Positions 1,821 through 21,030 of a stretch of 24,000 nucleotides of DNA are shown in pieces. The notes below the pieces were generated by a model. That model made no database searches. It had not been told where the DNA came from and was given only the letters and a program-made list of their open reading frames with translations. Made by a program: the position numbers and the translations under genes. The stretch lies in contig NZ_CP014782.1 in assembly GCF_002005305.1 (NCBI RefSeq), forward strand, positions 216,706-240,705, read 5' to 3'. Position 1 is the stretch's first letter. Each line of letters begins with the position of its first letter. The DNA is from Shewanella psychrophila (GTDB taxonomy: Bacteria > Pseudomonadota > Gammaproteobacteria > Enterobacterales > Shewanellaceae).

Positions 1821-1979
1821 AGATCACTTCTGAATTTTAAATATGGAATCTGGATATCCCATTAGGTTATCCTTAATTTTCGGATTGATTAAATCAGTTC
1901 GTATCCGGAAAGCGGATAGGTCGCTTATTTAGAGGCAATACTAAAATGAGAGTTAGGATAAGAGTAAAGGTGAGATGAT

Positions 1980-2876
1980 ATGAACTGGACGCTTTATCAG
2001 CTGGAAGCTTTCGTGCTTTCGGTTAATCATGGCTCATTCTCGGCGGCCGCAAGAAAACTGGGTAGGGCACAGTCTAGGATCAGTACGGCTATTGCCAATC
2101 TGGAAGTAGATCTGGGCTTTGAGCTATTCGATCGTAGTGCCAAGTTACCTGTGCTTACTAAACATGGTGAAGATATGTTTATTCAGGCTCAGGCCGTGCT
2201 CGAACAATGCCAGAGGCTCGAATCTCGTGCGATGACGCTTAATACCGGCCAGGAGATCGCGTTAACAGTTGCCATGGATGAAGCCGTTCCGGTTAATGCT
2301 TTTGAGCTGTTATTTGAACAAGTAGCAATACAATTTCCTTTGTTGAAACTGACGATTATCAATGGCTCCAGAGATGATATCGCCTCATGGGTAGATGAAG
2401 GCAAGGCTGATATGGGAATTGTTTTTCATGTGAGGGAGTTACCCGGTTCATTAGAATTTATGTCTATAGGCCAATTCAGGCAGTCACTGATAGTGTCACC
2501 TAAACACGCGTTAGCAAAAATTCCGTCTCCCAAAATAGCCGATCTCAATCAGTATCGTCAGCTGGTTATCCGTGATCGTGTAGGTGACAGTCAGGCCAAG
2601 GCACTGTCACCAAATCATTGGTATATAGATAGTTATTATTATATGACGGCACTGGTGATACGTGGTGTAGGTTGGGCACTCGTGCCTGAGCACGTGGTCA
2701 ATGCCGAGTGGTATTCTGGCGATGTTGTCGAGCTATCGACAGAATATATTCCCGATCCTCTTTTGGTCGAAATGGGGGTCGTTAATCGCCGTGATAAAGC
2801 CTATGGTCCTGTAATGGAGTGGATTTTTATCGAAATAGAGTCCATGTTTAAGTCTAATAAGCTTCAAAATTATTGA
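1980..2876 (+). CDS. LysR family transcriptional regulator
   Basis: 298 aa. N-terminal wHTH LEAFVLSVNHGSFSAAARKLGRAQSRISTAIANLE followed by a LysR substrate-binding-like C-terminus. GGTGAG SD lies upstream. Divergent from the MATE gene, a classic regulator/efflux pairing. Confidence 0.9.
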   Translation: MNWTLYQLEAFVLSVNHGSFSAAARKLGRAQSRISTAIANLEVDLGFELFDRSAKLPVLTKHGEDMFIQAQAVLEQCQRLESRAMTLNTGQEIALTVAMDEAVPVNAFELLFEQVAIQFPLLKLTIINGSRDDIASWVDEGKADMGIVFHVRELPGSLEFMSIGQFRQSLIVSPKHALAKIPSPKIADLNQYRQLVIRDRVGDSQAKALSPNHWYIDSYYYMTALVIRGVGWALVPEHVVNAEWYSGDVVELSTEYIPDPLLVEMGVVNRRDKAYGPVMEWIFIEIESMFKSNKLQNY

Positions 2877-2921
2877 TTTGTGCTAACTTAAGTTTAAGTG
2901 CAGTGAGAAGGGGAGGATTGC

Positions 2922-3299
2922 ATGTTAACTAGTTTAAAGCAAAAACTCGTCGAATTAGAGCTCTACCTGCTTAAGTCTGATGTCCGATCATCACCCGCTG
3001 AGTTAGATCTGCTCATTCATAACGACTTTCACGAGTTTGGTGCGTCCGGTGCCAGTTTTGGTAAGCGAGAAGTACTCGAATGTTTACCTAAAGAGAAGTG
3101 TCCTGAGTTTTGTGCCACCAGTTTCGAGCTTAGAATGTTATCAAAAGATCTTGCTCAGTTGCTGTATCGAGCCACGATGAAGAAACAGGATGAATTTAAC
3201 ACGCGTTATTCACTGAGAAGCTCGCTGTGGAAACACAATGAAGAGTTAGGTGAGTGGCAGATGATTTTTCATCAGGGAACAACTTGTGAGCGATTTTAA
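2922..3299 (+). CDS. DUF4440 / NTF2-like fold small protein
   Basis: 125 aa. GGGGAGG SD lies 5 nt upstream of the ATG. The pattern ...LLIHNDFHEFGASGASFGKREVL...W(K)H..GEWQMIFHQGT resembles SnoaL/DUF4440 proteins. Assigned by eye only. Confidence 0.55.
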   Translation: MLTSLKQKLVELELYLLKSDVRSSPAELDLLIHNDFHEFGASGASFGKREVLECLPKEKCPEFCATSFELRMLSKDLAQLLYRATMKKQDEFNTRYSLRSSLWKHNEELGEWQMIFHQGTTCERF

Positions 3300-3321
3300 T
3301 AGTCATTGATTAGTAGATAAA

Positions 3322-3343
3322 AAAGCCGCAATGAAGCGGCTTT
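3322..3343. terminator. Bidirectional rho-independent terminator hairpin between convergent genes
   Basis: aaagccgc-aatgaa-gcggcttt forms a perfect 8-bp stem. It is flanked by an A-run on one side and a T-run (ctgttttt) on the other. It sits between the stop of 2922..3299(+) and the stop of rlmJ(-). Confidence 0.65.
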
Positions 3344-3381
3344 ACTGTTTTTATTATGCAGGCTAATAAAATGTTCGTGGC

Positions 3382-4224
3382 TTATTCGCCGACTTCCCAT
3401 TTCACTGAGACTTTGCCGCCGCCTTGATTAAGCAATGGAGAAAGATAATCAAGCATCTCTGAAGCTGTCTCATCTAACTGCCAAGGTGGGTTGATGACCC
3501 AAAGACCAGCTGCGGTCATACCAAACTCATCACTGTCAGACTTTATCGCCTGCTCAATTCTAAGCTGACGCTTGATGCCGCTGTCGGTGAGCAGCTTAAG
3601 CATCTCTTCAGTCTGGGCACGTTTTACCACTGGATACCAGAGGATATAGATGCCGGTAGAGAAGCGTTTATGGGCTTTGATTATTGTCTTGGCAACATCC
3701 TGATAATCGGTTTTCATCTCATAACTAGGGTCTATCAGCACAACGCCGCGACGCTCAAGAGGTGGTACTGCTCCAAGTAAGCCTTTTAAGCCATCGCCTT
3801 TAATGACCCGTACTTGCTTGTCACTACCGAGTTGCTCGTCAAGCAAAGCATGGTCGGCGCCGTGTAGTTCATGAAGTACCATGCGATCTTTTTCGCGCAT
3901 ATTCATGTCGACGAACGCTGGAGAACCTGGGTAATAGGTTAGCTCAGATTCACCTTGGTTGAAGTGCTTAACGTCTTCAATATATTGTTGCAGTGATTCT
4001 GGGAGGTCGTTCTTATCCCAGAGTTTTGCCACACCATCGAGGTATTCCCCAGTTTTTTGTGCAAACTCATCGGTGAGAGCGTAACCACCGGCACCGGCAT
4101 GGGTATCTATATAGGCCAGTGGCTTATTTTTCTTATGCAGTGATTTCAGCACTTGTAGCAAGATCGAGTGCTTTAACACATCGGCATAATTTCCGGCATG
4201 GTAGCCGTGGCGATAACTAAGCAT
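3382..4224 (-). CDS. rlmJ: 23S rRNA (adenine2030-N6)-methyltransferase RlmJ
   Basis: 280 aa. The N-terminus MLSYRHGYHAGNYADVLKH and the length are diagnostic of RlmJ/YhiR. DPSYE and NPPW-type motifs are present (VLIDPSYE, VINPPW). Confidence 0.85.
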   Translation of the reverse strand: MLSYRHGYHAGNYADVLKHSILLQVLKSLHKKNKPLAYIDTHAGAGGYALTDEFAQKTGEYLDGVAKLWDKNDLPESLQQYIEDVKHFNQGESELTYYPGSPAFVDMNMREKDRMVLHELHGADHALLDEQLGSDKQVRVIKGDGLKGLLGAVPPLERRGVVLIDPSYEMKTDYQDVAKTIIKAHKRFSTGIYILWYPVVKRAQTEEMLKLLTDSGIKRQLRIEQAIKSDSDEFGMTAAGLWVINPPWQLDETASEMLDYLSPLLNQGGGKVSVKWEVGE

Positions 4225-4368
4225 GAAAATTCCAAGAAAATTGAATGTATCAGTGTAAATTCCTGCGCTATATTAACACAATTATTTCCATGAGAGTCTG
4301 GATATTGGGTTGTAGGAATGTAGAGCTTACAGTGATATTTGTATATCAACTGATAGGCATAAATCGAT

Positions 4369-4412
4369 ATATCAAAAACTTATATTATTATAATAATATA
4401 AGTTTTTGATAT
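4369..4412. repeat. Perfect 44-bp AT-rich palindrome (22+22, no spacer)
   Basis: atatcaaaaacttatattatta|taataatataagtttttgatat is an exact reverse complement. An outer inverted pair flanks it: aatcgata (4362-4369) and tatcgatt (4431-4438). Confidence 0.9.
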
Positions 4413-4644
4413 TTTTACGCTAGTTATTATTATCGATTAACTAATTCCTATCAATTTAATAGTCCGTCATATAAATTTAATATTACTCAGATCGGATGTT
4501 TAACTCGTTTTAAATTTTTTAAAAAACAAATAACTAAAATTAGTCGTTGTGTTTAATCGGTTTTATCGCAGGTGATTGTCAATCACTTATGTATTATAAA
4601 AACAAGAGGGTAACAAATGTTAACCTTGTTTAATCTTTGTCCGG

Positions 4645-4673
4645 TTGACAAATATTTTATTAAAGAGTAAAAA
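4645..4673 (+). promoter_or_regulatory. Near-consensus sigma70 promoter candidate (TTGACA-N17-TAAAAT)
   Basis: TTGACA at 4645-4650, a 17-nt spacer, and TAAAAT at 4668-4673, oriented toward rsmJ (start 4919). The background is AT-rich, so a chance match is possible. Confidence 0.35.
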
Positions 4674-4918
4674 TTTAAATATCTAGTTTATTTGTTAATC
4701 TTATTGTTTTTAATAGCAAGTAGAGTAATAAATTGAACTTGTTAGAATCAAGCTTTGTATAAAAGAGTGGGTTAACCTGAAGCTATTAACAGTCGCCAAT
4801 CCAATGTGGGCCTAGCGGGACACAATAGCGGAAAGACTTTACTTGGCCGAAAGCTCTTGTATTCACTGAGCTGAGCTTTTGGCATAATGTAGAGATAATC
4901 GTCCAAATTCGAGTTAAC

Positions 4919-5695
4919 GTGACTAAAGATAAACAAGAAAAATCGGTTCCAGGCATTTTTTTCAATGCTCAATATCCTTCACTGGAGGCTATCTGTCAGC
5001 GTTGGGGACTGGTTTTTGACAAAGAAGCCGATTTTGAACTGGTTTTTGAAAATAATACGTTGATCCTTAACAAGCGTGATGAGCCAAAACTTAAAGGTAT
5101 TTGTGTGGACTTCGTCTCTGGTGCCGTGGCTCATCGTCGAAAATTCGGTGGTGGACGTGGTCAATCCATTGCTAAGGCGGTTGGGCTCAAACAAGGCGTA
5201 AATCCTTCAGTGGTCGATGGTACTGCGGGTCTTGGTCGAGATGCTTTCGTGTTGGCTAGCTTGGGCTGCACCGTGATTATGGTTGAGCGTCATCCTGTGG
5301 TTGCCGCCTTGCTAGAAGATGGTCTAAGACGTGCCTACGAAGATGTGGATATCGGTGAATGGATGCGTGAGCGAATGAGTCTGGTCCCCGGTTCTAGCCT
5401 TGAATCTGTTATAGAGCTAGGTAAAGAGGTCGATGTTGTTTATCTGGATCCCATGTACCCCCACAGAGAGAAGTCGGCTCTGGTTAAGAAGGAAATGCGG
5501 GTCTTTCAATCTCTGGTGGGAGCCGACATGGATGCCGATGGCTTACTTGAACCCGCCATGACACTCGCGACGAAACGAGTGGTAGTCAAGAGGCCTGACT
5601 ATGCTGAAGACCTAGATGGCGTGAAGCCGTCGATGGTGATAGCAACGAAGAAAAACCGCTTCGATGTCTATGTAAAGGCTGCGATGACGAGCTAG
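4919..5695 (+). CDS. rsmJ: 16S rRNA (guanine1516-N2)-methyltransferase RsmJ
   Basis: 258 aa. [19 protein letters not shown]... and [39 protein letters not shown] match RsmJ/YhiQ. The start is GTG at 4919 with no in-frame ATG nearby, so the start is somewhat uncertain. Confidence 0.85.
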
Positions 5696-6024: not shown

Positions 6025-6133
6025 TGTTATGGTTTACGGCCTGATTACGACTAATTTGAACAAGAGGTTTATGCTTTTCTATTTAAGCGTAAATACTGAG
6101 ACATTCTATCTAGTAACTCGAAAGGAAACTCAA

Positions 6134-6517
6134 ATGTCAGAAGTAACAGGTAAAATCCGCACTACGTTAAGAGTTGAGGGATTGGTGATATTGCTAGCCT
6201 CATTACTGATCTACCACAAGTTTTCTTTTAGTTGGTCAGAATTCGCATGGTTTTTTCTGGCTCCAGATCTTGCACTATTAGCCTATATTCATAGTGCTAA
6301 ACTCGGTTCCCTTGCCTATAACCTATCCCATTCGTTTATTGGCCCCTTAGTCACCTTGTTATTTGGCGTACTGGGGGATTCACAAGTTGCAATTCAAATT
6401 TCATTAATCTGGTGTGGACATATAGGCTTCGATAGAGCCTTGGGTTATGGCCTGAAGTATTCAAAAGGCTTCTCCTACACTCACTTAGGTCAAATTGGTA
6501 AGAGTCAAAAGACATAG
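6134..6517 (+). CDS. DUF4260-like small membrane protein
   Basis: The ATG at 6134 is preceded by AAGGAAA SD. The 127-aa product MSEVTGKIRTTLRVEGLVILLASLL...HIGFDRALGYGLKY has about 4 hydrophobic segments. The track ORF start at 6029 lies partly in repeat-derived sequence and lacks an SD. Confidence 0.6.
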   Translation: MSEVTGKIRTTLRVEGLVILLASLLIYHKFSFSWSEFAWFFLAPDLALLAYIHSAKLGSLAYNLSHSFIGPLVTLLFGVLGDSQVAIQISLIWCGHIGFDRALGYGLKYSKGFSYTHLGQIGKSQKT

Positions 6518-6550
6518 TAAATATGGGGAGCTGCTAGGTGGCAACTTGTT

Positions 6551-6580
6551 GCTTATAAGTCTTAAATGAGACTTATAAGC
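6551..6580 (+). terminator. Hairpin downstream of the DUF4260 gene (possible terminator)
   Basis: gcttataagtct-taaatg-agacttataagc forms a perfect 12-bp stem. The stem is AT-rich and only a weak T tract follows. Confidence 0.4.
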
Positions 6581-7070
6581 ACTGTATTAGATGTTTTATC
6601 TGGTCCGTTAGCCTAGGCTATGTTCATAACCGAGATCATATTTTTAATCGGCAATCTTATTATTGCGCTCAATAATATTTAGTTCCCACTAGTACTTATA
6701 TACTACTTAACTAACTCAGCTCTATTTGTTTTTTAATATGTGGGATTGAGTGTTCTACTCTAAGAACTATTATTGCTGGTAATGTTTTATATGGGTTGGA
6801 TAACATTGGTGCAGCCGCACCAATATTGACCGCGTATAGAGTAAGGTTACTTGTCATTGTGAATATAATTGATCATGAATAAAAATTTAACATTCATTAA
6901 TTAACTAATCACCATTTTAAATATATAATCATTATTATGTTTTACTCCTTGTATTAATTCGTGGCGTTCGTAAGTAGTTAAAGCGATGTTGTTATATACC
7001 ACTGCAATGAGTTTGACACTGGGGTTATACCCAGAAAGCGTAGTGTTGAATAACTTGGAAGGATAGGTCC

Positions 7071-7805
7071 ATGAACATTGATAAACTCTACTCGCTAGTT
7101 GAATCTCTTTCACACTGTCATACCCCTGAAGAAATTGAGAAAGTCTGCTTAAAGTTTTGCCAATTATGCGAGCTGGAATTTTTTCTGTTTGCTGTCTGTA
7201 ATGCAACGTCTCTTAGTGCGCCTAAAATCTTTACTCTCACCAACTACCCCAGTGAGTGGTTAGACGTTTATTATAAAAATAACTTTCAAAAAAGTGATGC
7301 CGTTGTGAGGTATTGCTTTGGTAATTCGGTACCCATCACCTGGAATAAGTTGATGAAAATTGATGAGTACAGTGAGCCTAATGCTGTTAAAGTAATGAAT
7401 GAGGCGCATTCAAAAGGTCTGATCGATGGCTTATCTGTTCCAATTAAGGCTCCAACCGGTGAAATTGCCATTTTAAGCTTAACGACTAAAATAGAACCTG
7501 ATGTTCAGCAACGTCTCGCCAATGTGCTCCCCTTTGTACAGTATTTTGGTTATTCGTTATTAGAAACCCACCTGAAAATGAATTTAGGAAAATCACCATC
7601 GGCTTCACTCACCCCCAGAGAAAAAGAAAGCTTATTTTGGGCATGTGAGGGTAAGACTGCCTGGGAGATGTCACAAATAATGAGTGTGGCCGAACGTACA
7701 GCAATATTTCATTTGAGCAGTGCCACTAAAAAATTGGGTGCGGCCAATCGGCAACATGCGGTTGCCAAAGCTGTGATGTATGGACTCATAAAACCACAGC
7801 CCTAA
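7071..7805 (+). CDS. luxR: LuxR-family AHL-responsive transcriptional regulator (autoinducer-binding domain + HTH)
   Basis: 244 aa. The N-terminal domain shows spacing of the conserved AHL-pocket residues (W..YY......SDAVV...PITW...GLSVPI). The C-terminal GerE/LuxR HTH reads LTPREKESLFWACEGKTAWEMSQIMSVAERTAIFHLSSATKKLGAANRQHAV. GGAAGGA SD is present. Confidence 0.9.
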   Translation: MNIDKLYSLVESLSHCHTPEEIEKVCLKFCQLCELEFFLFAVCNATSLSAPKIFTLTNYPSEWLDVYYKNNFQKSDAVVRYCFGNSVPITWNKLMKIDEYSEPNAVKVMNEAHSKGLIDGLSVPIKAPTGEIAILSLTTKIEPDVQQRLANVLPFVQYFGYSLLETHLKMNLGKSPSASLTPREKESLFWACEGKTAWEMSQIMSVAERTAIFHLSSATKKLGAANRQHAVAKAVMYGLIKPQP

Positions 7806-7839
7806 TGATTGGCTGATGCCAGCAGAACCTTTAAAAACA

Positions 7840-7865
7840 AACATAGAGCCATCGGCCCTATGTTT
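7840..7865. terminator. Imperfect hairpin between convergent luxR and the RibD-like gene
   Basis: aacatagagcc-atc-ggccctatgtt forms an 11-bp stem with one mismatch, located between the two stops (7805 and 7905). Confidence 0.4.
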
Positions 7866-7904
7866 AAGAAGGTTTACTCATTATCTCGCTACCATAATAA
7901 GGGG

Positions 7905-8876
7905 TTAATGAGACTGCATCGGAGTATGGGCGTCCTGACTTTTCTCTGGCATTAAGATTAAGCGACTACAAGCGCCTATATCAGTATTTGAATTTAGCTG
8001 CCAACCCTCAGTGGGGAGCGAAGCCAATTCTGTGAGCTTACTTACTGGTTTGTCATGAATCGGTAAGTGACAAATCACTTCGTCTGTTAATTTATTTTCC
8101 ATTAATGCTGACTGCATCTTGTCCTCTGTGAGGACCAATACACTACAGCGGTGCTCGCTAGCAAAATACTTAAGCAAAGTGCGCATACCTTCTATGGATG
8201 TGGCTTCATAAAATTCTTGGTATTCATTTGCATAATTTCTATCTGATAACTGCTCAATAAAGCCTTTTTGAGACGGCGAATACACCACGGCGCGGGATTG
8301 TTTCGCAATTTCATCTATATAGGCAACAAACCCAAATTCGCCTCGAAAATCTTCCAGACGCAATGACTTATCTTGGTTATCGGCTATGGATACGCTGGAT
8401 ACCCAGGGGCGATGACTCGATAGCACCATGTTAAGCCCTGAGCCAATTCTGCGTGTTGCATGTAAAAAGTCGACACTCTCGATCTCACCTTGCCATCGCC
8501 CTAGTGGCGATGCTCGAAAGCTCTGCATATCAAAGTCCATGACTGGCACTATGATTTTTTGGCAAGATGATTCGACGAGACTGCTGGCAAGCTCTTCACA
8601 GTCGAACAGTGATTCTAATGGCCATAGAGTCACAATTAATGTGTGCACCACATGGGCATAGCGATTTATGGACGCGGTCAAACTCAGATAGTTTGTGCCG
8701 GCAATGATAGCCTCGGAATGAATATGCAGGCTATTTTCATCGAGCAAGACCCAACCGATACCGGCTCTTTTAGATACCTTTTCAGCCGAAGTGATGGCTA
8801 AACTCATCGACACTTCGAGGGCTGCTCGTTGTTTTTGTTGTGTGTCTAGTTCCAAAATTTGATACATCCTGATCAT
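7905..8876 (-). CDS. RibD-like (deaminase + reductase fold) protein with degenerate catalytic motifs; function unknown
   Basis: 323 aa. By-eye alignment to RibD gives: IGWVLL vs VGCVIV; IVTLWPL...DC vs YVTLEPC..PPC; HRPWVSSVSIADNQD vs RPyVtlKlA.SLDG; VLVLTEDKMQSALMENKLTDEVICHLPI vs vwvEaGg.L..all.agLvDEl.vyiaP. The zinc-ligand PC..C and EGG motifs are not conserved. That the ORF is real is more certain than its function. Confidence 0.45.
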   Translation of the reverse strand: MIRMYQILELDTQQKQRAALEVSMSLAITSAEKVSKRAGIGWVLLDENSLHIHSEAIIAGTNYLSLTASINRYAHVVHTLIVTLWPLESLFDCEELASSLVESSCQKIIVPVMDFDMQSFRASPLGRWQGEIESVDFLHATRRIGSGLNMVLSSHRPWVSSVSIADNQDKSLRLEDFRGEFGFVAYIDEIAKQSRAVVYSPSQKGFIEQLSDRNYANEYQEFYEATSIEGMRTLLKYFASEHRCSVLVLTEDKMQSALMENKLTDEVICHLPIHDKPVSKLTELASLPTEGWQLNSNTDIGACSRLILMPEKSQDAHTPMQSH

Positions 8877-8951
8877 GTAGGTAAGGGAACATTATGTGTT
8901 TCTTCGGGTGAACATTTTCCAAAGTAAACGGCACTATTGTTCCGTTAATAT

Positions 8952-8969
8952 AACCAAGTTTTCTTGGTT
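8952..8969. promoter_or_regulatory. 18-bp palindrome aaccaag-tttt-cttggtt in the divergent promoter region
   Basis: Perfect 7-bp arms separated by tttt, about 80 bp upstream of the RibD-like gene start. No known regulator can be assigned. Confidence 0.3.
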
Positions 8970-8973
8970 CGAA

Positions 8974-8994
8974 TACTGTAAATAGTGTCAGGTA
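8974..8994. promoter_or_regulatory. lux-box-like site 1 (CTGT-N8-TCAG)
   Basis: taCTGTaaatagtgTCAGgta. It shares CTGTnAnnAGTGnCAG with site 2, which lies 95 bp away. It lies in the intergenic region between the RibD-like gene and luxI. Confidence 0.4.
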
Positions 8995-9068
8995 CTCAAA
9001 CGGGATATTTTGGCAATGCGTGCATCAAAAATCTAAGGGGGGACTATTTAGTGAGCGGTTATAAATCT

Positions 9069-9088
9069 AGCTGTTATAAGTGACAGTA
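9069..9088. promoter_or_regulatory. lux-box-like site 2 (perfect CTGT-N8-ACAG core)
   Basis: agCTGTtataagtgACAGta is 20 bp long. Its dyad core is identical to that of the V. fischeri lux box (ACCTGTAGGATCGTACAGGT). It is centred about 147 bp upstream of the luxI ATG. Confidence 0.5.
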
Positions 9089-9225
9089 TAGGGAAAGAAG
9101 CTATTTTTATCACATCTAAAACAAGGGTATAGGTTTGTTTTTTTTAGATTGTAATTTCTGACAGATACGCTGAAGAAACAAAATAAATATATTGGATCTC
9201 GTAATCAACTTCCGGCGAGATAACT

Positions 9226-9813
9226 ATGAATAACACAGTATTTACTCAACATAATCTGCAAACTTCTGCTTCAGAACTTATTCTCGATGGCATCATGAGA
9301 TTACGTTACGAAACGTTCATCAAACGACTGGACTGGGATATTGCTTCTACAGATGGTCGCGAACAAGATTGCTTCGATGACAACGAAGCGCATTACATCG
9401 CCGTTCTTGAGGATGATAAAGATGTTATTGGCTGTTGGCGAGCCAGGAGTACCTTGCAAGATTATATGCTCAAGTCGGTGTTTCCCGAACTGTTACAGGG
9501 GGAGTCGGCACCTGTGCAAGATGATATCTGGGAGATCAGCCGTTTTGCCGTGAAAAAAGGCTCAGCTGAAACCCAGAAAGGATATTTTGGCGATGTCACC
9601 ATAGATCTTGTTAAGTCGTTTTATGATTTTGCGAAACAAAATGGAATAAAAAGCTATGTTACGGTAACCACAGTTGCCTGCGAAAGATTATTGCGTCAGT
9701 TAGGGGTGAATTTAAGGCGCATGGGCGATGGCAAGGTTAAGCAGATTGGTGTCGAGCGAACCGTAGCCCTGTGGATCCAAGTGGATGAAGATTTAAATAT
9801 CATTTCCCATTAA
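9226..9813 (+). CDS. luxI: LuxI-family acyl-homoserine-lactone synthase
   Basis: 195 aa. LRYETFIKRLDWDI....GREQDCFDD..AHYIAV......VIGCWRA..T...YML..VFPELL.G...P....IWEISRFAV is the canonical autoinducer-synthase N-terminal signature (R, F, W, D, D, R, E, SRF). Confidence 0.9.
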   Translation: MNNTVFTQHNLQTSASELILDGIMRLRYETFIKRLDWDIASTDGREQDCFDDNEAHYIAVLEDDKDVIGCWRARSTLQDYMLKSVFPELLQGESAPVQDDIWEISRFAVKKGSAETQKGYFGDVTIDLVKSFYDFAKQNGIKSYVTVTTVACERLLRQLGVNLRRMGDGKVKQIGVERTVALWIQVDEDLNIISH

Positions 9814-9825
9814 CATGTCAGGTTC

Positions 9826-9843
9826 AGTGTAAACGTTTGCACT
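9826..9843. terminator. Weak hairpin in the 38-bp gap between convergent luxI and the PPTase gene
   Basis: agtgtaaacgtttgcact is a near-palindrome (one G-U position) with no clear U tract. Confidence 0.25.
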
Positions 9844-9851
9844 TTCAACGG

Positions 9852-10682
9852 CTAAGATAGGTGAAAGGTTGCGACAGCTAATCGCTCAGCTACTCCAGGT
9901 CTAAGGTGAGAAATCAAATCATAGCTGACCCTCAAGAGTTTATTTGCATCTGCCTGCAAGCGTTTATGATTGGGGGTGAACAATAGCTGTCGATTGTCTA
10001 CGTCTATGGCAACTAAACGTGCAAGGGTAAAACTCAGGTTATCTCCAGGTTCGCTGAGGGCCTTGAATAAACTTTCTTTGGCCGAAAACACCAGTGTAAT
10101 GGCCAGCTCAAAACTGAGTTCGCTCTCCTCGACGCAGACTCGTTCTTGGTTCGACAAAATATACCGTGCTATTCCCTCGGCTTGTTTTTCATTGACTGTA
10201 AACTCAATATCCACGCCCACGCGACATGGATGAGGGGATGCTAGTGTCATGGCTAAGGCAAATTCACCACTGTGACTTATTGAGCCATAAAGCCCATCTT
10301 CCCATGAAGGTTTGCCACAGGGCGAGGTGCCGATCTTGATAGGCTGGAGCTGTGCCGGTTCCATTTCAGCAATATTCAGGATATTTTCCTGAGCCAGGCT
10401 GCTAACCGCGACAGCGGCGCAAAGTCGCCCAGCAAGAAAGTCTTGTTGACGCTTCTTACCCCAGGTCTTATAAAAATCTGTGTTTGGAAACCATAGTGCC
10501 ATGTCATTGGAGGAAAAGTTTTCGCGGTTAAAATGACCTAAAGTGATCACACAAGGGGACGATTCTATTTGCTGACCAAGATGACTCACCTGGATGAAAT
10601 CATCTTTAAAACAGCTGCAGAGTCTAGGGGACACTCGTGTCGTCTCATGGCTAACATGTTTATTTATCACTAAATTAGTCAA
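9852..10682 (-). CDS. 4'-phosphopantetheinyl transferase, EntD/Sfp type
   Basis: ...KKRQQDFLAGRLCAAVAV...GKPSWEDGLYGSISHSGEFALAMT...VGVDIE...FSAKESLFKAL aligns by eye to E. coli EntD. I prefer the TTG start at 10682 because it has AAAGGAG 8 nt upstream and does not overlap the preceding gene. The track start at 10754 would overlap the TE gene by 53 nt. Confidence 0.8.
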   Translation of the reverse strand: MTNLVINKHVSHETTRVSPRLCSCFKDDFIQVSHLGQQIESSPCVITLGHFNRENFSSNDMALWFPNTDFYKTWGKKRQQDFLAGRLCAAVAVSSLAQENILNIAEMEPAQLQPIKIGTSPCGKPSWEDGLYGSISHSGEFALAMTLASPHPCRVGVDIEFTVNEKQAEGIARYILSNQERVCVEESELSFELAITLVFSAKESLFKALSEPGDNLSFTLARLVAIDVDNRQLLFTPNHKRLQADANKLLRVSYDLISHLRPGVAERLAVATFHLS

Positions 10683-10701
10683 GTTGTGATCTCCTTTAGG
10701 T

Positions 10702-11472
10702 TTATGCGTTTGCCTCGATGGCTCGCTCATGTGCATGCTGGATCTGCTCGGCAACCCAAGCGCTGTGACTGCGAATAAAGAAATGACCCGCTTTAATTGT
10801 CTTTAATGGGGTGCTTGGCGGTAAGTGTTGTCGCCAAGCTTGCAATGATGTCTCTTCAATAAAGGTGTCTTCTGTCGCGCCTAATACCAGAGCCGGATGA
10901 GGATAGTATTGCTGACAGGCATTATGGGTCTCACACAGGGCCAAATCTGCGCGGATCACAGGTAAAATCCACTGTTTGAGTATCGACATTGACACCTTCA
11001 TTCCGGCGAAACTTTCGAAACGATTGAGATAATTGATCATCTCTCTATCATCCATCAGTGCATTGGGCTTAAATGGATACAGCTCCGAAGGCGCACGCTG
11101 CGCCCCTATAGCCAATAGCTCTGGGGGACAGGCCTCTTTTGCCAGTTGCTTGGCGATATACCATGCAAACCAAGCCCCCATACTGTGACCATATAGCATT
11201 ATCCTGTGCTGTTTTATGGCGGGTAAAATAGCTTGGCTCATGGCATTCGCAGCGGTCTTAAAGTCAGTATAAAAGGCTTCATGTCGGCGGCTATCCCGGC
11301 CAGGGAATTCCAGTGGCACCAAGTGGTAAGCATCACCAAAGAGTCCACTCAATCCGGCAAAGCTGGCACTATTTCCTCCGGCAAATGGAAAACATATTAT
11401 ATTCACTTTATCTGGCTTTATGACCTGTCCTAACCAGTCACTCGCCATAGCGTCGTCATGAGCTGTACACAT
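10702..11472 (-). CDS. Type II (editing) thioesterase, alpha/beta hydrolase
   Basis: ICFPFAGGNSASFAGL and the nucleophile elbow LYGHSMGAWFA are typical of GrsT/RifR-like TEII. I prefer the ATG at 11472 (MCTAHDD...) because of a GGAG 6 nt upstream. The alternative GTG start is at 11484. Confidence 0.85.
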   Translation of the reverse strand: MCTAHDDAMASDWLGQVIKPDKVNIICFPFAGGNSASFAGLSGLFGDAYHLVPLEFPGRDSRRHEAFYTDFKTAANAMSQAILPAIKQHRIMLYGHSMGAWFAWYIAKQLAKEACPPELLAIGAQRAPSELYPFKPNALMDDREMINYLNRFESFAGMKVSMSILKQWILPVIRADLALCETHNACQQYYPHPALVLGATEDTFIEETSLQAWRQHLPPSTPLKTIKAGHFFIRSHSAWVAEQIQHAHERAIEANA

Positions 11473-11487
11473 ATTCATCTCCACTGG

Positions 11488-12603
11488 TTAGCTGTGATTC
11501 AGGGATGTATCTGCAGATCCATAGTATTTCGCTCCTACTTTACGAACCTGGCGTTTAAGTAAGCGCTGGGTGAGTCCACGTAGCCAGTTTATCCGTGAGC
11601 CAGCTATCAGATCCGAGAAAATCCAGATCACTGTCAGCGGTAGATGATTCGGCGCCCCATGAATATCATCGACTTGTAAAATTTGATTGTGTGGAACGTT
11701 CGAACGAACCGCTTGCATATCATCAAGGGGAATAATCTCATCGCGGCTACTGGCAAGATAATGGATATTGGCGGAGATTCTTTCCAGAGATTCAGCCGAG
11801 AGGCCCCAATCGGAGATATGGGATTTAACCTCTGTGTTATCGCAGTCGAATATATGGGCTAAGGTATTGTAGGTAATATCCGGGATTGCTAATTTATTGC
11901 TACCATCACCAAAAAAGTCTGCAATAGGAGCGCCTACCGTGGTAATGGTATGAATATTACTGTTTTCGAGCGAGGCGTTCATGGCTAAATGGCCACCAAA
12001 GCTAAAGCCTATGACGTGCACATCTTGGGTATTAGCACGCCCCTGTAAACGTTTCAGTATACGACGAAATAACTGACTGTCGTGGGCATCGTATGGCAAG
12101 GTATTTTCTCCCACGCCGGGTAATTCCGTCAGCACCACACAATAACCAAGTTTTTTTGCCATGACTAACAAGCGGTGCCATTGCTCCTTGATTGATACTA
12201 TGCCGCCAAGTACCACAACCACAGGTTTGTTCTTGTCCAGACCTGCGGTATAGCAGCCAAAATCAGGGTCAGAAAAGCGCCAGTATTCAACATCGGGTAG
12301 TGTGTTCGCCAGCCATTGGCGGTATAACTGTTGGCATTTATTGAGCGCTTTTTTACGAGCAGGGTCACCTACATAGGGGAAGCGCGCCAAGTTATACAAT
12401 TGAATAGAGTCTTGAATATCTCCCGAAGATTCGGCCCGTTCGGCTAAGGATGACAGCACATAAGCCCAACTTCTCGGATCGCCGTGAATATCATTTTCTA
12501 TGTTGTGTAAGGCAAAATCTAATACGCTTTCATCTAATTTCTGCGCCCGACTATGAAGGCGCGCAAACGCCTTCAGCTCAGCGACATCATGTTGCTTTAT
12601 CAT
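11488..12603 (-). CDS. Alpha/beta-hydrolase fold protein (candidate Agg5/AbyA5/ChlD4-type tetronate acetate-eliminating enzyme)
   Basis: 371 aa. GxSxG elbow HVIGFSFGGHLA, with an N-terminal helical region reminiscent of FrsA/DUF1100 hydrolases. The start overlaps the upstream stop (ATGA). The specific role is inferred from cluster context. Confidence 0.7.
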   Translation of the reverse strand: MIKQHDVAELKAFARLHSRAQKLDESVLDFALHNIENDIHGDPRSWAYVLSSLAERAESSGDIQDSIQLYNLARFPYVGDPARKKALNKCQQLYRQWLANTLPDVEYWRFSDPDFGCYTAGLDKNKPVVVVLGGIVSIKEQWHRLLVMAKKLGYCVVLTELPGVGENTLPYDAHDSQLFRRILKRLQGRANTQDVHVIGFSFGGHLAMNASLENSNIHTITTVGAPIADFFGDGSNKLAIPDITYNTLAHIFDCDNTEVKSHISDWGLSAESLERISANIHYLASSRDEIIPLDDMQAVRSNVPHNQILQVDDIHGAPNHLPLTVIWIFSDLIAGSRINWLRGLTQRLLKRQVRKVGAKYYGSADTSLNHS

Positions 12604-13817
12604 GATATTTTCCCCATGGCTAATGAGCGTTGACGCTTGTATGAGATCTGATTGAGGATGCGATTCTGTATAAATGGCATGCGATTTAAAATGAAATAAA
12701 AGGCTTTACGCATACTCAGCATGAGTTTCGAGTCGCTACAGAGCATTTTTTCCTGGCGTTGTTGCATTTGAGTCACAAAATCGACTTGTGGTTGGCGCTC
12801 GCTTTGATAGCTTCTTAAAAATTGAGTATCGACGGCTTTATCTGATTGCACCTGTTGAGCCAGCATAGGTGCCAAAGTCATGGCGTCCTGAATGGCAATA
12901 TTTACGCCTTGACCCAGTAATGGGGTAAGTGTGTGCGCCGCATCGCCAATCATGATCAGGCCATCTTTACCCCACAGAGGCGCATGAGTGGTAAAGATGT
13001 CTAGTACATGGAGATCTTTCCAGCTGGTTATGTGCTTGCGAACATGTTGACCGAGTTCTGCGTTCACCTCATCAATCAGATTATAGAAACCATCTAGGCC
13101 TTCTTTCTTGAGAGCCGCGAATCCACCCTTGGGAATGTTCACTCCTGTACGGTATAGATCTGGGTAGGATGGCAGCAAGATGATGTGTTGAGCGCCATTG
13201 AGCAAGATATAGTATTTATGTTTATCCCAACCTTCAGGAATAGGCATCTTGCACCAAAGTACATCGCGCTCTTGTGGTGTTTTTGTGTAAGGAATGGCCG
13301 CTTTTTCACGGACTCTGGAATAACGACCGTCGGCGGCGATGATGGCTTTGGCATGGATGGACTTTTTCTCACCGGCTTCGCGATAAGTCACACCTATTAC
13401 GGTATCGTCTTTTTCGATGACACCGTCGAAGGCTGCGCCTCTGATCAATTTGGCATTTGGATATTGTGCCAGCTTCTCGGCAAGGGCATTGAGGAAGACC
13501 GGCTGAGGCACATCGATCATGAATTTATGCTGATAGGGCATTTTAGTGTAATTCATGTTGAGTCGTTTGGAGTCCCTCTCCCAAACCTCCAGTTCTTTAA
13601 ATATCATATAACCATGTTCATTTATCGCATCTGCGATACCCAATTCGTGAAAGATGCCAACGGTATCAGGCTGAATGGACTCACCGCGAAATGAACGCTC
13701 ATAACTTTTGTTGGCCTCCAGCACTGTGACATCGACGCCACTCTTTGCCAATTTAAGCGCTAAAACCAGGCCAGCTGGGCCACCGCCTACTATGCATATT
13801 TGACTAGTCTGTTCCAT
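12600..13817 (-). CDS. Class A FAD-dependent monooxygenase (UbiH/PHBH-like)
   Basis: 405 aa. GxGxxG ICIVGGGPAGLVLALKLAKSG, DG motif AADGRYSRVR, and GD motif MIGDAAHTLTPLLGQGVNIAIQDA. AGGAG SD is present. Confidence 0.9.
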   Translation of the reverse strand: MEQTSQICIVGGGPAGLVLALKLAKSGVDVTVLEANKSYERSFRGESIQPDTVGIFHELGIADAINEHGYMIFKELEVWERDSKRLNMNYTKMPYQHKFMIDVPQPVFLNALAEKLAQYPNAKLIRGAAFDGVIEKDDTVIGVTYREAGEKKSIHAKAIIAADGRYSRVREKAAIPYTKTPQERDVLWCKMPIPEGWDKHKYYILLNGAQHIILLPSYPDLYRTGVNIPKGGFAALKKEGLDGFYNLIDEVNAELGQHVRKHITSWKDLHVLDIFTTHAPLWGKDGLIMIGDAAHTLTPLLGQGVNIAIQDAMTLAPMLAQQVQSDKAVDTQFLRSYQSERQPQVDFVTQMQQRQEKMLCSDSKLMLSMRKAFYFILNRMPFIQNRILNQISYKRQRSLAMGKIS

Positions 13818-13827
13818 AATCTTACTC

Positions 13828-14595
13828 CTAAGTGTCTGCTTTTATGGACTCTAGGCCCAGTTTTAACTCTTCTAGTAAATCGGCTGCTTCGGCACCATCG
13901 ATGACGCGATGGTCGAAGGCCAAAGTGAGGGGTAACATATCGCGGATCACCACCTCGCCCTTTACTACCAGAGCCTTGGCTTGGATCTGTCCAAGCCCTA
14001 AGGTGATCGATGCGCCAACCTGAGGAATCAAAAGGCTGACAGGCTTCTGTCCCAGTGAGGTGATGGCAAATGAGCCCTGTAACTTATGTTTTAGCGTCGG
14101 CTTACTCATTAACTTGCCAAACAACCAACGTCCAAGTGGCACAGGTAACGACTGAAGCTTCTTCAGTCGGGGAAACTCTGGCCATAACGCGAGTGGTGTC
14201 TGTTTAAGAAACCTCACTTCCGACTGAATTTGCGCCAGAGATTTTGTTTCTGCATGTGCAATCAAGCCTGAACCGACACAGCGAACGCCATCAATCTCTT
14301 TATCCAGTGCAAACTTGCCGTGAACGGCTGGAAAACGATGTAACTTGGGGCGCCAACGTCCGGTTACGACTCCATTGGCGTCAGGGTGATTTGCCAGTGC
14401 CCGCCCCGTGGCATACATGACCATAGCGACGATTCCTGGCACTTCGGCTTGTTCTTGGCCTTTGGCTGTGGCTCTGAGTGTATTCATTGCTGTGGCATCG
14501 ATATCCGTGGATAAGAACACGGGACTGTATTGTGTCGACTGCTCTAAAAAATAGAGGGTATGACGACGAGAAAGAGGAAATGCGGTGTTATTCAT
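13828..14595 (-). CDS. 2-oxoacid dehydrogenase E2-like acyltransferase catalytic domain, standalone (candidate Agg4/AbyA4/ChlD3-type)
   Basis: 255 aa with no lipoyl or E3-binding domains. Catalytic motif LAFDHRVIDGAEAA (DHRxxDG). The start overlaps the ACP stop (ATGA). Confidence 0.8.
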   Translation of the reverse strand: MNNTAFPLSRRHTLYFLEQSTQYSPVFLSTDIDATAMNTLRATAKGQEQAEVPGIVAMVMYATGRALANHPDANGVVTGRWRPKLHRFPAVHGKFALDKEIDGVRCVGSGLIAHAETKSLAQIQSEVRFLKQTPLALWPEFPRLKKLQSLPVPLGRWLFGKLMSKPTLKHKLQGSFAITSLGQKPVSLLIPQVGASITLGLGQIQAKALVVKGEVVIRDMLPLTLAFDHRVIDGAEAADLLEELKLGLESIKADT

Positions 14596-14825
14596 AACGC
14601 TTCCTCTAAGGTGGCGAGCCGATGGATATCGCCTAAGGTGTTCGCTTTCAGGAAGGCAGGAATAGGAACTGGGTGTCCTGTCAGCATTTCGAGTTCAGAG
14701 AGTAAGCGGACAGCATGAAGTGAGTCCCAACCTTCGAGATCGACTAGCTGCATCGACATAGCCGACTCGGTTAGCTTAATGTCCATAAAATCTTCAACTA
14801 GTGCGATAAATTCATGTTTATGCAT
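14592..14825 (-). CDS. Acyl carrier protein (candidate glyceryl carrier)
   Basis: Start at MHKHEFIALVEDF... (ATG at 14825, overlapping the fkbH-like stop by 8 nt). Ppant-site motif LEGWDSLHAVRLL. The longer track ORF (to 14894) would overlap the upstream gene by 77 nt. Confidence 0.8.
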   Translation of the reverse strand: MHKHEFIALVEDFMDIKLTESAMSMQLVDLEGWDSLHAVRLLSELEMLTGHPVPIPAFLKANTLGDIHRLATLEEAL

Positions 14826-17723: not shown

Positions 17724-17732
17724 GGAAATTTC

Positions 17733-20666: not shown

Positions 20667-20753
20667 GTTCTCTTTTCCTTTATGGTTAAATATTTCAAAT
20701 TCATCGTCTTCTTGCCCATCGACTACCAGTCATTGCGCAGGGTAGGTGATAGG

Positions 20754-21008: not shown

Positions 21009-21030
21009 GGTGTACTCCTGGTTGATTCAG

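Follow-up and report, generated by a model that had tools for sequence, protein, structure and literature searches.

What does a gene do that stands alone on the opposite strand between luxR and luxI, and does the cassette that it completes govern the biosynthetic operon lying beside it? The question is raised by a 24,000-nucleotide stretch of the Shewanella psychrophila genome (hereafter the window), where the gene in question, here called X, occupies this middle position next to a tetronate-type operon (Table 1). We favour, as reasonably probable, a reading in which a Las-type cassette, luxR > < X luxI >, would control the tetronate operon, with X as a modulator of the circuit.

The quorum-sensing locus and its neighbouring operon

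An earlier, sequence-only reading had proposed a genuine R-X-I quorum-sensing locus placed tail-to-tail against a biosynthetic operon, and both the Pfam domains and the ORF layout agree with it, the positions of luxR, X and luxI being those found here. The luxR product matches Autoind_bind (E 4.7e-28) and GerE (E 1.6e-12), has QscR (5.6e-26) and LasR (1.2e-22) as its nearest solved relatives (phmmer against the PDB) and is 40-72% identical to the luxR products of 11 related loci. At the DPVV motif, it alone among the compared loci has Asp-Ala, the others having Asp-Pro; this alanine at a normally conserved proline counts against our main reading. LuxI matches Autoind_synth (E 2.2e-29), with LasI as its nearest solved relative (PDB, E 8.3e-34) and an identity of 50-66% to the luxI products of related loci. 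The locus is confirmed as a real LasR/LasI-type quorum-sensing unit.

The luxI and PPTase stops are separated by precisely the distance claimed before, and the description of the gap as holding only a weak hairpin is correct, because its hairpin shows no excess stability over shuffled sequence (z +0.43 and -0.19) and a terminator scan calls no terminator-like site in it. Since no terminator was found, antisense read-through between luxI and the operon would be possible.

Table 1. Features of the locus (window coordinates unless L015 is given)
Feature	Position	Strand	Size	Remarks
luxR	7071-7805	+	244 aa	LuxR-type AHL receptor/transcription factor
Hairpin	7838-7866		13-bp stem	In the 99-bp spacer of convergent luxR and X; terminator scan
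X	7905-8876	-	323 aa (NCBI call: 316 aa)	Sole minus-strand ORF between luxR and luxI
X-proximal lux-box-like site, TACTGTAAATAGTGTCAGGT	8974-8993			About 107 bp upstream of the X ORF start
Central predicted lux box, AGCTGTTATAAGTGACAGTA	9069-9088			Perfect CTGT-N8-ACAG; 147 bp upstream of luxI ATG
luxI-proximal lux-box-like site, GATTGTAATTTCTGACAGAT	9147-9166			69 bp upstream of luxI ATG
luxI	9226-9813	+	195 aa	LuxI-type acyl-homoserine-lactone (AHL) synthase
luxI/PPTase gap	9814-9851		Exactly 38 bp	Convergent stops; no convincing terminator
PPTase	9852-10754	-		EntD-type 4'-phosphopantetheinyl transferase; last tetronate-operon gene
Tetronate-type biosynthetic operon	10702-24000 in window, on to about 26204 outside	-		TE, alpha/beta-hydrolase (Agg5-type), FAD mono-oxygenase, E2-like acyltransferase (Agg4-type), ACP, FkbH glyceryl-ACP synthase, FabH-like KSIII, KS-AT-ACP PKS, ACP, two ACAD-fold proteins
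First operon gene	Outside window			Acyl-AMP ligase
Lux-box-like sites of the operon promoter	L015 4626-4645 and 4686-4705			

Beyond the window the operon was read on L015 (100% identical to window positions 11031-24000), so that in window-equivalent coordinates the whole of it runs from 9852 to about 26204 (about 16.4 kb). All five tetronate 'glycerate-utilisation' gene types, a hallmark set (PMC7489565), are present, the FkbH protein is named 'D-glyceryl-ACP synthase' at NCBI, and the assignment of the cluster to the tetronates holds at the domain level. The PPTase has Pfam 4PPT_N and ACPS matches and an NCBIfam EntD match (6.3e-29) under the cut-off of that model; its start is ambiguous, the position 10682 given earlier being one option, and its orthologue in the closest tetronate cluster, L021, has 257 aa.

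The middle gene and its family

X has no Pfam match (none at E below 0.01) and no NCBIfam match. Its family is rare (about 60 cluster representatives, all named "hypothetical" and none annotated) and ranges over marine Gammaproteobacteria (Shewanella, Ferrimonas, Thalassotalea, Cellvibrionaceae). The AF2 model of X (pLDDT 91.3) gave full-length Foldseek matches to RibD/RibG that cover both domains (E about 1e-13, TM 0.53-0.64), and hhalign aligned the family with E. coli RibD at a probability of 88.7% (E 2.6e-6, 275 columns), the Pfam RibD_C threshold being reached by none of the 56 family members. The lack of a Pfam or NCBIfam match, together with the RibD fold, ruled out RsaL, RsaM and MupX as identities of X; a DNA-binding domain was detected by neither Pfam nor Foldseek.

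Across the 56 members, the columns of RibD H50, E52, C75, C84 and K152 are variable or hydrophobic, and so are those of the EAG stretch (E. coli RibD residues 299-301), the Gly-containing counterpart of the EGG-type NADPH motif in other RibDs. Judged from alignment and model, X represents an undescribed family of RibD fold without the RibD catalytic residues.

These losses bear on the possibility that X is an active enzyme, performing new chemistry on a RibD/DHFR-like scaffold that alters the signal or its precursors (e.g. reduction of 3-oxo-AHL or 3-oxoacyl-ACP, or processing of the nucleoside by-product MTA) and thereby tuning which AHL the cell makes or senses, instead of a non-catalytic modulator. 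The fold of its C-terminal domain, that of DHFR and the RibD reductase, is characteristic of NADPH enzymes, and common lux boxes would co-regulate X with luxI. Seven polar positions (S35, R37, N214, D265, E266, H270 and R305) are 75-98% conserved, an observation that counts against a non-catalytic X. On the other hand, the zinc ligands, the catalytic Glu, the Lys152 equivalent and the NADPH Gly motif are gone family-wide, and the alignment deletes the RibD segment with the 'DDP' motif. Only P157 and W158 are invariant, and the near-invariant residues (W42, G60, P86, W292, and D265 and E266, which align to the VDEL motif of RibD) look largely structural; moreover, X, at 16-41% identity between loci, evolves far more rapidly than R (40-72%) or I (50-66%). 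We consider an active enzyme unlikely, and return to X as a modulator below.

The gene order is strict: X is divergent from luxI, with luxR close by, in each of the 11 independent loci whose flanks suffice to show it (the window, L001, L002, L003, L004, L006, L008, L010, L017, L018 and L019), and on three truncated contigs (L009, L012 and L013) luxR adjoins X. Among the loci with flanks, from at least four genera, none has X away from luxI/luxR, and all other neighbours vary; in subfamily B, X comes first in an operon with MacAB-type efflux genes. The spacer between luxR and X is missing in all seven related subfamily-A loci, where the 3' ends of the two genes overlap by exactly 21 bp. The strong hairpin that the window has in this spacer carries its T-run on the minus strand, is terminator-like for X and folds with z of -2.6 (plus strand) and -3.1 (minus strand) against shuffles.

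Predicted lux boxes and a probable link to the operon

An exact CTGT-N8-ACAG occurs once in the window (9071-9086), which by itself is not significant (0.22 expected; at least one in 20 of 100 shuffles); the significance of the predicted boxes comes from their clustering, their conservation across loci and a matrix scan. Three of the 13 one-mismatch sites of the 24 kb fall within the 349-bp X-luxI spacer, and sites of this type cluster in all X-luxI spacers. The three-site layout recurs in L001, with a perfect equivalent of the central site 148 bp upstream of luxI, and the luxI-proximal site lies within the best-conserved block of the L001 spacer alignment (TGTAATnTCTGACAG, there 71 bp upstream of luxI). 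Counterparts of the X-proximal site occur upstream of X both in L001, at a distance of 127 bp, and in L003, L004, L006 and L008, at about 70 bp, and subfamily B has a near-perfect site about 70 bp upstream of X.

For the scan (31 kb) the matrix was trained on other genomes only, this genome being left out. The central site is its best match (19.6 bits), and the X-proximal and luxI-proximal sites, with one mismatch each, score 13.6 and 13.8 bits. Seven matches reach at least 13.6 bits, the next falling to 8.7 bits, and five of the seven are predicted sites; the two unexplained ones lie across the DUF4260 start codon (6132-6151, 19.5 bits) and within rlmJ (3463-3482, 13.9 bits). At 16.9 bits or more there are four matches against 0.05 expected. 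Held-out loci L017-L019 have 2-4 matches each (19-23 bits), all in the luxI-X region bar one in L019, which lies directly downstream of luxI.

The sequence-only reading recommended a search for the same motif in the operon promoter beyond position 24000, and this search succeeded. One 200-bp spacer, 2.2 kb beyond the window, contains two lux-box-like sites, ACCTGTCAGAAATAACAA and ACCTGTCACATATGATAG. Two start codons diverge from this spacer, and each has one of the sites about 70 bp upstream; the sites score 17.5 and 16.9 bits (third and fourth in the 31 kb with the other-genome matrix). The promoter has no exact CTGT-N8-ACAG, both sites carrying one mismatch. From these positions we infer LuxR binding at the predicted boxes and AHL induction of the operon and of X.

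Elsewhere, the cassette adjoins NRPS, PKS-NRPS, lanthipeptide and LanB-like clusters, and the closest tetronate cluster, L021 (FkbH 68% identical), has at its 3' side an MMPL transporter gene and no luxI; a 16.6-bit site stands there 68 bp upstream of this exporter gene, which we count in favour of control of neighbouring genes by such cassettes. An independent distribution of cassette and cluster, named beforehand as a reason to give up the regulatory link, is thus found at least in part. It argues against co-inheritance, not against regulation in this genome; the link may be recent or weak, because the two are not co-inherited. The suggestion that carrier proteins of the cluster feed LuxI found no support: LuxI orthologues of 50-66% identity stand beside RiPP clusters with no ACP gene in the flanks read.

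That cassette and operon adjoin incidentally (e.g. as two islands side by side), the promoter sites being due to chance and the cluster AHL-independent, seems improbable to us. The portability of the cassette, the tetronate cluster without luxI, the mismatch in both promoter sites and the strong matrix matches at two unexpected places would all fit such a view, but two sites of this strength in one 200-bp spacer compare with 0.05 expected per 31 kb, and their distance from the start codons is that of X-proximal boxes elsewhere. Furthermore, a biosynthetic cluster abuts the cassette in 10 of the 11 loci, and in L003 a 19.9-bit site lies upstream of the lanthipeptide precursor genes. The cassette is a portable quorum-sensing module, and it probably drives the cluster beside it. 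Very unlikely, finally, is X as the first cargo gene of the regulon, serving density-dependent physiology unrelated to circuit or clusters with no feedback on LuxR or LuxI: it has its own predicted lux box, and the efflux operon of subfamily B could be output and not control, but in the loci with flanks X always accompanies luxI and luxR while other neighbours change, and the fixed 21-bp overlap ties it physically to the circuit.

X is, on genomic grounds, probably a LuxR-controlled modulator of the circuit. Starting from the gene identities, the fold of X, its loss of catalytic residues, the strict synteny and the lux-box positions observed in silico, the proposed mechanism would run as follows. 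A self-contained Las-type AHL cassette would have been placed next to a tetronate polyketide operon, and LuxR with the AHL made by LuxI would bind 20-bp palindromic boxes with a CTGT-N8-ACAG core. The three boxes of the bidirectional X-luxI spacer would provide luxI autoinduction and co-induction of X, and the two in the divergent operon promoter would turn on tetronate production at high cell density. X, a cytoplasmic two-domain protein presumably of RibD (deaminase + reductase) descent, would most likely be a modulator built into the circuit, probably with a braking or homeostatic role, acting neither by DNA binding nor by RibD chemistry but by binding a protein or small molecule (LuxR, LuxI, AHL or a nucleotide-like ligand). 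We infer modulation in either direction; the preferred direction is suggested solely by the position that X has in common with rsaL and rsaM.

Comparison with known systems

The arrangement is that of lasR-rsaL-lasI in Pseudomonas aeruginosa: order and strands (R > < X I >) are the same, X takes the place of rsaL, the closest solved relatives of R and I are LasR/QscR and LasI, and putative lux/las boxes lie within the bidirectional X-I spacer. Most X-family relatives also have the convergent overlap of the middle gene with luxR, as described for luxR/rsaL in the same topology (Gelencser et al. 2012, PMC3386692), whereas in this genome 99 bp, including a terminator hairpin, separate the two genes. 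Unlike RsaL, a small helix-turn-helix repressor of ~80 aa, X has 323 aa in a two-domain RibD fold and no RsaL-like HTH; therefore, any negative feedback must work differently.

RsaM types (R-M-I, Burkholderia and Pseudomonas fuscovaginae) likewise sit between R and I, modulate the circuit, occur essentially only in luxI/luxR loci and have no DNA-binding motif (PMC3386692, PMC10710839). X shares the position, the near-confinement to such loci, the lack of a DNA-binding motif and, as proposed here, the modulating role; however, it has no sequence match to RsaM, is about twice the size, has a RibD-like fold and has another taxonomic range (marine Gammaproteobacteria). With RibD/RibG itself, X shares the full-length two-domain fold, remote profile homology and common motifs ((T/S)xEP, RPWVT vs RPYVTLK, LVDE), but it is only 11-15% identical, has about 45 residues deleted in the reductase domain, lacks the His/Cys/Cys zinc ligands, catalytic Glu, Lys152 and EGG-type NADPH motif, and stands among quorum-sensing and not rib genes.

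The operon resembles acyl-tetronate clusters of the agglomerin/RK-682 type (FkbH-like synthase, ACP, FabH-like ketosynthase, Agg4-like acyltransferase, Agg5-like hydrolase) and differs from them in its deep-sea Shewanella host, the AHL cassette at its flank, and a single KS-AT-ACP module combined with an acyl-AMP ligase and two ACAD-fold proteins. For the locus as a whole, a parallel is offered by mupR-mupX-mupI of Pseudomonas fluorescens NCIMB 10586, which controls the adjacent mupirocin polyketide cluster and whose MupX is an AHL-degrading amidase (PMC3386692). In both, an R-X-I cassette with an enzyme-derived X is attached to a neighbouring polyketide cluster; unlike MupX, the X described here has no amidase signature and its ancestral active sites are degenerate.

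Family and predicted fold of the X protein

The protein encoded by X, the gene lying between luxR and luxI, matched no family in Pfam or NCBIfam (E up to 0.01-0.1), and a word-indexed search of 5.8 billion proteins returned only the protein itself and one relative with 41% identity. Since the word-indexed search was nearly empty, an exhaustive profile search was required to reveal the family; over 1.84 billion representatives it yielded 60 members (~305-330 aa), of which 54 scored E below 1e-10. All named members (from Shewanella, Ferrimonas, Thalassotalea, Cellvibrionaceae and gammaproteobacterial MAGs) are labelled 'hypothetical protein' and fall in clusters of 1-3 sequences. Identity to the window protein is 16-41% for X as compared to 40-72% for LuxR and 50-66% for LuxI, indicating that X is evolving faster. 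An incomplete literature search found neither a characterization of the putatively new X family nor any account of quorum sensing for S. psychrophila, the species from which the window derives (its X and FkbH proteins are 100% identical to the NCBI entries of that species).

A PDB sequence search with a two-sequence X profile gave nothing meaningful (the top match being an SDR, E 0.45), and an AlphaFold model from only two X sequences was discarded (pLDDT 46.5). The model computed from a 56-sequence alignment reached pLDDT 91.3 and pTM 0.88. The best 20 Foldseek matches of this model in the PDB were all full-length (E 9e-14 to 4e-8, TM 0.53-0.64) and mostly RibD/RibG, the bifunctional deaminase-reductase of riboflavin synthesis, for which E ranged from 9e-14 to 2e-11 with probability 1.00. 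Five of these 20, equal to the others in length and scores, were deposited as Klebsiella 3-dehydroquinate dehydratase I; single-domain DHFR/Rib7 structures followed after the best 20. The hhalign comparison of X with E. coli RibD gave a probability of 88.7% over 275 columns across both domains. Overall, the model of X has the RibD-type two-domain fold, combining a CDA-like and a DHFR-like domain.

In RibD, His50, Cys75 and Cys84 are zinc ligands and Glu52 is the catalytic base. The corresponding deaminase columns (H50, E52, C75 and C84 of the E. coli enzyme) are variable or Leu in the 56 aligned X members, without a conserved His, Cys or Glu at any zinc-ligand or catalytic column. In the reductase domain, the Lys152 column is Val/Ile across the family, the columns at E299-A300-G301 (EAG being the E. 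coli counterpart of the EGG-type NADPH motif in other RibDs) are Asp-rich and then variable with no conserved Gly, and the segment of the 'DDP' motif is deleted. Pfam RibD_C, the only family recurring across the 56 members, matched four of them, all below threshold (best E 0.0046). X is therefore RibD-derived and, lacking the RibD catalytic residues, unable to perform RibD chemistry; on the latter grounds a functional RibD paralogue was rejected. The sequence-only reading had assigned the locus to the R-X-I class exemplified by rsaL, rsaM and mupX. The opposite-strand gene between luxR and luxI is indeed there, but X has no homology to RsaL, RsaM or an amidase, and was rejected as a hidden form of any of these.

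Conserved gene order and variable neighbours of the cassette

A locus search with a narrow X alignment recovered one genome locus and four metagenome loci. DNA flanks were available around X-family members spanning 16-41% identity to X, and in every locus with enough flank (11 in all: the window, L001, L002, L003, L004, L006, L008, L010, L017, L018 and L019) luxI is divergent from X and luxR is near. Among the truncated contigs, luxR is visible in L009, L012 and L013, and L011 is too short to judge. Subfamily A has the layout R > < X I > (the window, L001, L002, L009, L010, L017, L018 and L019, with only X and luxR visible in L009), while subfamily B is arranged as < I X > macA macB R > (L004, L006 and L008) or, in L003, as < I X > R >. 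A lone opposite-strand gene separates the co-oriented luxR and luxI in the window, L001, L002, L017 and L018; L010 and L019 are also R-X-I, but with a chitin-synthase-like GT2 gene inserted between luxI and X. In L004 (Ferrimonas kyonanensis) a Hachiman-type defence pair, HamA plus helicase, occupies 15540-16924 directly downstream of the cassette luxR and is probably unrelated to it.

In all seven other subfamily-A loci, the convergent 3' ends of X and luxR share exactly 21 bp. This overlap has been lost from the window, where a terminator hairpin takes its place, a strong structure with a 13-bp stem (7838-7866; z -2.6 and -3.1) in the 99-bp luxR/X gap. The conserved C-terminal 'RLN' of X was rejected as a functional tail, because the 21-bp overlap with the luxR end on the opposite strand accounts for it.

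ORF finding and Pfam reproduced the luxR/X/luxI/PPTase layout proposed earlier, together with the 38-bp gap behind luxI (see table). By their domains, luxR and luxI are predicted to encode a LuxR-type AHL receptor, with both the N-terminal autoinducer-binding domain and the C-terminal GerE/LuxR helix-turn-helix, and a LuxI-type AHL synthase; luxI genes are apparently rare in the genus Shewanella. Among solved structures the receptor is closest to QscR/LasR and the synthase to LasI (1ro5, E 8.3e-34), which makes this a Las-type system. A by-eye reading of an alignment of 12 cassette LuxRs located the ligand-pocket hallmarks W, Y, D, W and G (presumably among W57, Y61, D70, P71, W85 and G113 in TraR numbering). 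Residues 76-77 of the window LuxR (7296-7301) are Asp-Ala versus the Asp-Pro of 'DPVV' in 11/11 related cassette LuxRs, a substitution that may alter its ligand specificity or stability. Upstream of luxR, ~550 bp at 6518-7070 are AT-rich (~36% GC) and hold no convincing ORF, Rfam match or lux box; this stretch may mark an island junction or else form one long regulatory region. A further GC dip is seen at 4001-5000, and Rfam and tRNA scans of the whole window gave no matches.

Features of the window and of the operon promoter beyond it (matrix sites are matches to the 20-bp lux-box matrix; w.e., window-equivalent)
Feature	Position	Strand	Evidence or location
Matrix site	3463		13.9 bits; within rlmJ
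Matrix site AAATGTCAGAAGTAACAGGT	6132-6151		19.5 bits, second in 31 kb; overlaps DUF4260 start codon
luxR	7071-7805	+	Pfam Autoind_bind E 4.7e-28 (PF03472, 98 bits, cut-off 23); GerE E 1.6e-12 (PF00196, 47.3 bits, cut-off 23.5)
X, 323-aa ORF	7905-8876	-	between luxR and luxI
Matrix site	8974-8993		13.6 bits; X-luxI spacer
Matrix site	9069-9088		19.6 bits; X-luxI spacer
Matrix site	9147-9166		13.8 bits; X-luxI spacer
luxI	9226-9813	+	Pfam Autoind_synth E 2.2e-29 (PF00765, 102.7 bits, cut-off 24)
PPTase gene	9852-10754	-	Pfam 4PPT_N + ACPS; stop 38 bp past luxI stop
Tetronate operon genes	10702 onward	-	Pfam/NCBIfam domains
Matrix site	26266 (w.e.; L015 4686-4705)		17.5 bits; tetronate promoter spacer
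Matrix site	26326 (w.e.; L015 4626-4645)		16.9 bits; tetronate promoter spacer

The cassette adjoins a different biosynthetic cluster in almost all loci: a tetronate PKS in the window, an AMP-ligase/PCP/PhyH/penicillin-amidase set in L001, an NRPS with a PPTase likewise tail-to-tail with luxI in L002, class III/IV lanthipeptide genes in L003, L006 and L008, LanB-like/M50/nitroreductase genes in L010 and L019, a PKS-NRPS whose end is tail-to-tail with luxI in L017, and an NRPS in L018, where a PPTase lies directly upstream of X. The lanthipeptide cluster of Shewanella sp. KX20019 (L003, 14548-15160), also found at the ends of two metagenome relatives (L006 and L008), comprises a RamC_N/Pkinase/LANC_like synthetase, an ABC exporter and four 32-35-aa precursor genes. 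In L003 a 19.9-bit lux box is located ~70-90 bp upstream of the first of these precursors. The small AMP-ligase/PCP/PhyH operon of L001 is headed by an AraC-type regulator gene and includes, ~6 kb from the cassette (44-2539), an 831-aa protein of the penicillin-amidase family, to which AHL acylases belong. PPTases recur at the cassette: EntD-type and convergent with luxI in the window (9852-10754), Sfp-type and convergent in L002 (7757-8641), and Sfp-type in L018 (6135-6908), where the gene directly precedes X and the two apparently form a PPTase-X operon; this recurrence may be chance or a functional link.

Lux boxes and the tetronate operon

A lux box, the operator bound by LuxR-family proteins, is a ~20-bp dyad-symmetric site with a CTG-N10-CAG core, centred near -42.5 of the regulated promoter. 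The exact motif CTGT-N8-ACAG occurs once in the window (9071-9086), which is not significant alone; allowing one mismatch gives 13 sites in the 24 kb, three of which fall inside the 349-bp X-luxI spacer. L001 shows an identical three-site layout, with the luxI-side pair spaced 77-78 bp as in the window. Lux-box-like sites are present in all X-luxI spacers of the family. A small rsaL-like ORF in the spacer was considered as a candidate; the spacers differ in length (349 vs 605 bp) and, apart from their lux-box blocks, mostly cannot be aligned. In subfamily B the X start codon is preceded at ~70 bp by a perfect or near-perfect site, and in L010 and L019 luxI and X each retain their own site despite the gene inserted between them.

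A 20-bp matrix was derived from 14 sites in other loci only and used to scan a 30,970-bp extended S. psychrophila region, giving seven matches of at least 13.6 bits (next best 8.7 bits). Four of them reach at least 16.9 bits, versus 0.05 expected per 31 kb from simulated sequences. The held-out loci L017-L019 gave 2-4 matches each at 19-23 bits, all in the luxI-X region save one in L019 directly downstream of luxI. Such a downstream box (21-23 bits) is also seen in L010 (2452-2471), and in L019 (region 3211-3511) the box precedes by ~78 bp a called gene of 70 aa without a Pfam match. Five of the seven are the predicted sites, and the strong ones at 6132 and 3463 are not among these; the former is ~920 bp upstream of luxR, spans the probable DUF4260 ATG at 6134 and has no minus-strand ORF to account for it, and could be either a repressive operator or chance.

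The promoter of the tetronate operon was reached through L015, a public contig 100% identical over 12,970 bp that extends 6,970 bp past position 24000. The first gene of the operon encodes an acyl-AMP ligase (start ~26204, window-equivalent), separated by a 200-bp spacer from a divergent ferredoxin-reductase-like gene. The motif search that the sequence-only reading had proposed for this region found two lux-box-like sites, one ~70 bp ahead of each divergent start codon. By sequence definition, the candidate sites in the target promoters qualify as putative lux boxes. The ferredoxin-reductase-like gene (L015 3604-4566; FAD_binding_6/NAD_binding_1/Fer2), with its own lux-box-like site ~70 bp upstream, and the MFP + FUSC-type efflux pair beyond it (914-3561) may be further members of the cluster or regulon.

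Tetronate clusters are defined by five glycerate-utilisation genes, of FkbH-like, ACP, FabH-like, Agg4-like acyltransferase and Agg5-like hydrolase types (PMC7489565). All five types are present at the domain level (FkbH, PP-binding, ACP_syn_III, 2-oxoacid_dh and Abhydrolase), so that the earlier tetronate assignment of the operon holds at that level, the Agg4 and Agg5 types being assigned from domains alone. The operon encodes a thioesterase, an alpha/beta-hydrolase, an FAD mono-oxygenase, a 2-oxoacid-dehydrogenase-type acyltransferase, an ACP, an FkbH glyceryl-ACP synthase (TIGR01686, 316.7 bits, cut-off 146.65), a FabH-like KSIII, a KS-AT-ACP module and two ACAD-fold proteins. The GTG-listed 403-aa ORF at 22679-23890 belongs, as its 3' part, to a 588-aa ACAD-fold gene running past the window end, and an 84-aa ACP gene (20754-21008; L015 9963-10217) between the ACAD and PKS genes is missing from the ORF list, which was filtered at 100 aa or more.

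At the other end of the operon, the 38-bp gap showed no more folding than shuffled sequence and the terminator scan called nothing in it; a terminator was hence rejected, in agreement with the weak hairpin described before, and antisense read-through between luxI and the PPTase gene may occur. The proposal that LuxI draws on the carrier proteins of the cluster found no support and was rejected, as orthologous LuxIs adjoin RiPP clusters with no ACP gene in the flanks read.

The closest tetronate cluster, in L020/L021 (FkbH 68% identical, ~68% DNA identity), continues from its PPTase gene to an MMPL transporter gene, and the 1.7 kb available past the PPTase lacks luxI, X and luxR alike. The cassette and the tetronate cluster are therefore separable units, and the independent distribution that had been named as an argument against their link is at least partly observed. 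A 16.6-bit lux-box-like site at L021 7220-7239, 68 bp upstream of the MMPL transporter start codon, hints that this cluster too is under quorum-sensing control, by a luxR encoded elsewhere. A coincidental link between cassette and cluster, a question independent of the role of X, would agree with this separability; given the two sites in the operon promoter we consider it unlikely, and the sequence evidence still favours quorum-sensing control of the tetronate operon in S. psychrophila.

A proposed role for X and its relation to known R-X-I circuits

The explanation we prefer, and regard as somewhat better than an even bet, is a portable Las-type AHL cassette in which AHL-bound LuxR would activate luxI, X and the adjacent tetronate operon via lux boxes, with X as a LuxR-controlled, non-catalytic RibD-fold protein modulating the circuit through protein or ligand binding. 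The modulator role is inferred from the strict synteny of X, its own lux box and its overlap with luxR. That X is instead a new enzyme acting on the signal would suit the NADPH-enzyme type of its C-terminal domain fold and the lux boxes it shares with luxI, and appears rather unlikely in view of the missing RibD residues. Mere cargo, with which the lux box of X would be compatible, is the least probable of these readings in the face of the strict synteny.

Taking the modulator reading further, we tentatively suggest, at somewhat less than even probability, that X is a RibD-derived pseudoenzyme founding a new class of quorum-sensing components, induced by LuxR-AHL from its own lux box and setting the threshold or gain of the circuit by binding LuxR, LuxI or a small ligand (candidates being AHL, a nucleotide or a flavin/pterin-like compound), and that marine Gammaproteobacteria have repeatedly plugged the cassette before antibiotic-type clusters (tetronate, NRPS, PKS-NRPS and lanthipeptides). 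If true, this would be a clear example of a metabolic enzyme fold recruited into signalling as a pseudoenzyme. With such cassettes beside silent-looking clusters in marine bacteria, the cognate AHL or removal of X might activate the clusters, possibly including that of the uncharacterised Shewanella acyl-tetronate.

Three kinds of X are known in R-X-I circuits, RsaL, RsaM and MupX, and a fourth, structurally unrelated X strictly tied to luxI/luxR would, if confirmed, widen the known ways of tuning an AHL circuit. Saccharophagus degradans is a member of the Cellvibrionaceae. Gelencser et al. (2012) described five R-X-I 'X' genes of unknown function (PMC3386692), and the one from S. degradans may belong to the X family. 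The X/luxR overlap of subfamily A recalls the luxR/rsaL overlap of R-L-I circuits (PMC3386692); X would thus hold the structural place of rsaL, but, unlike it, must work via protein or ligand binding.
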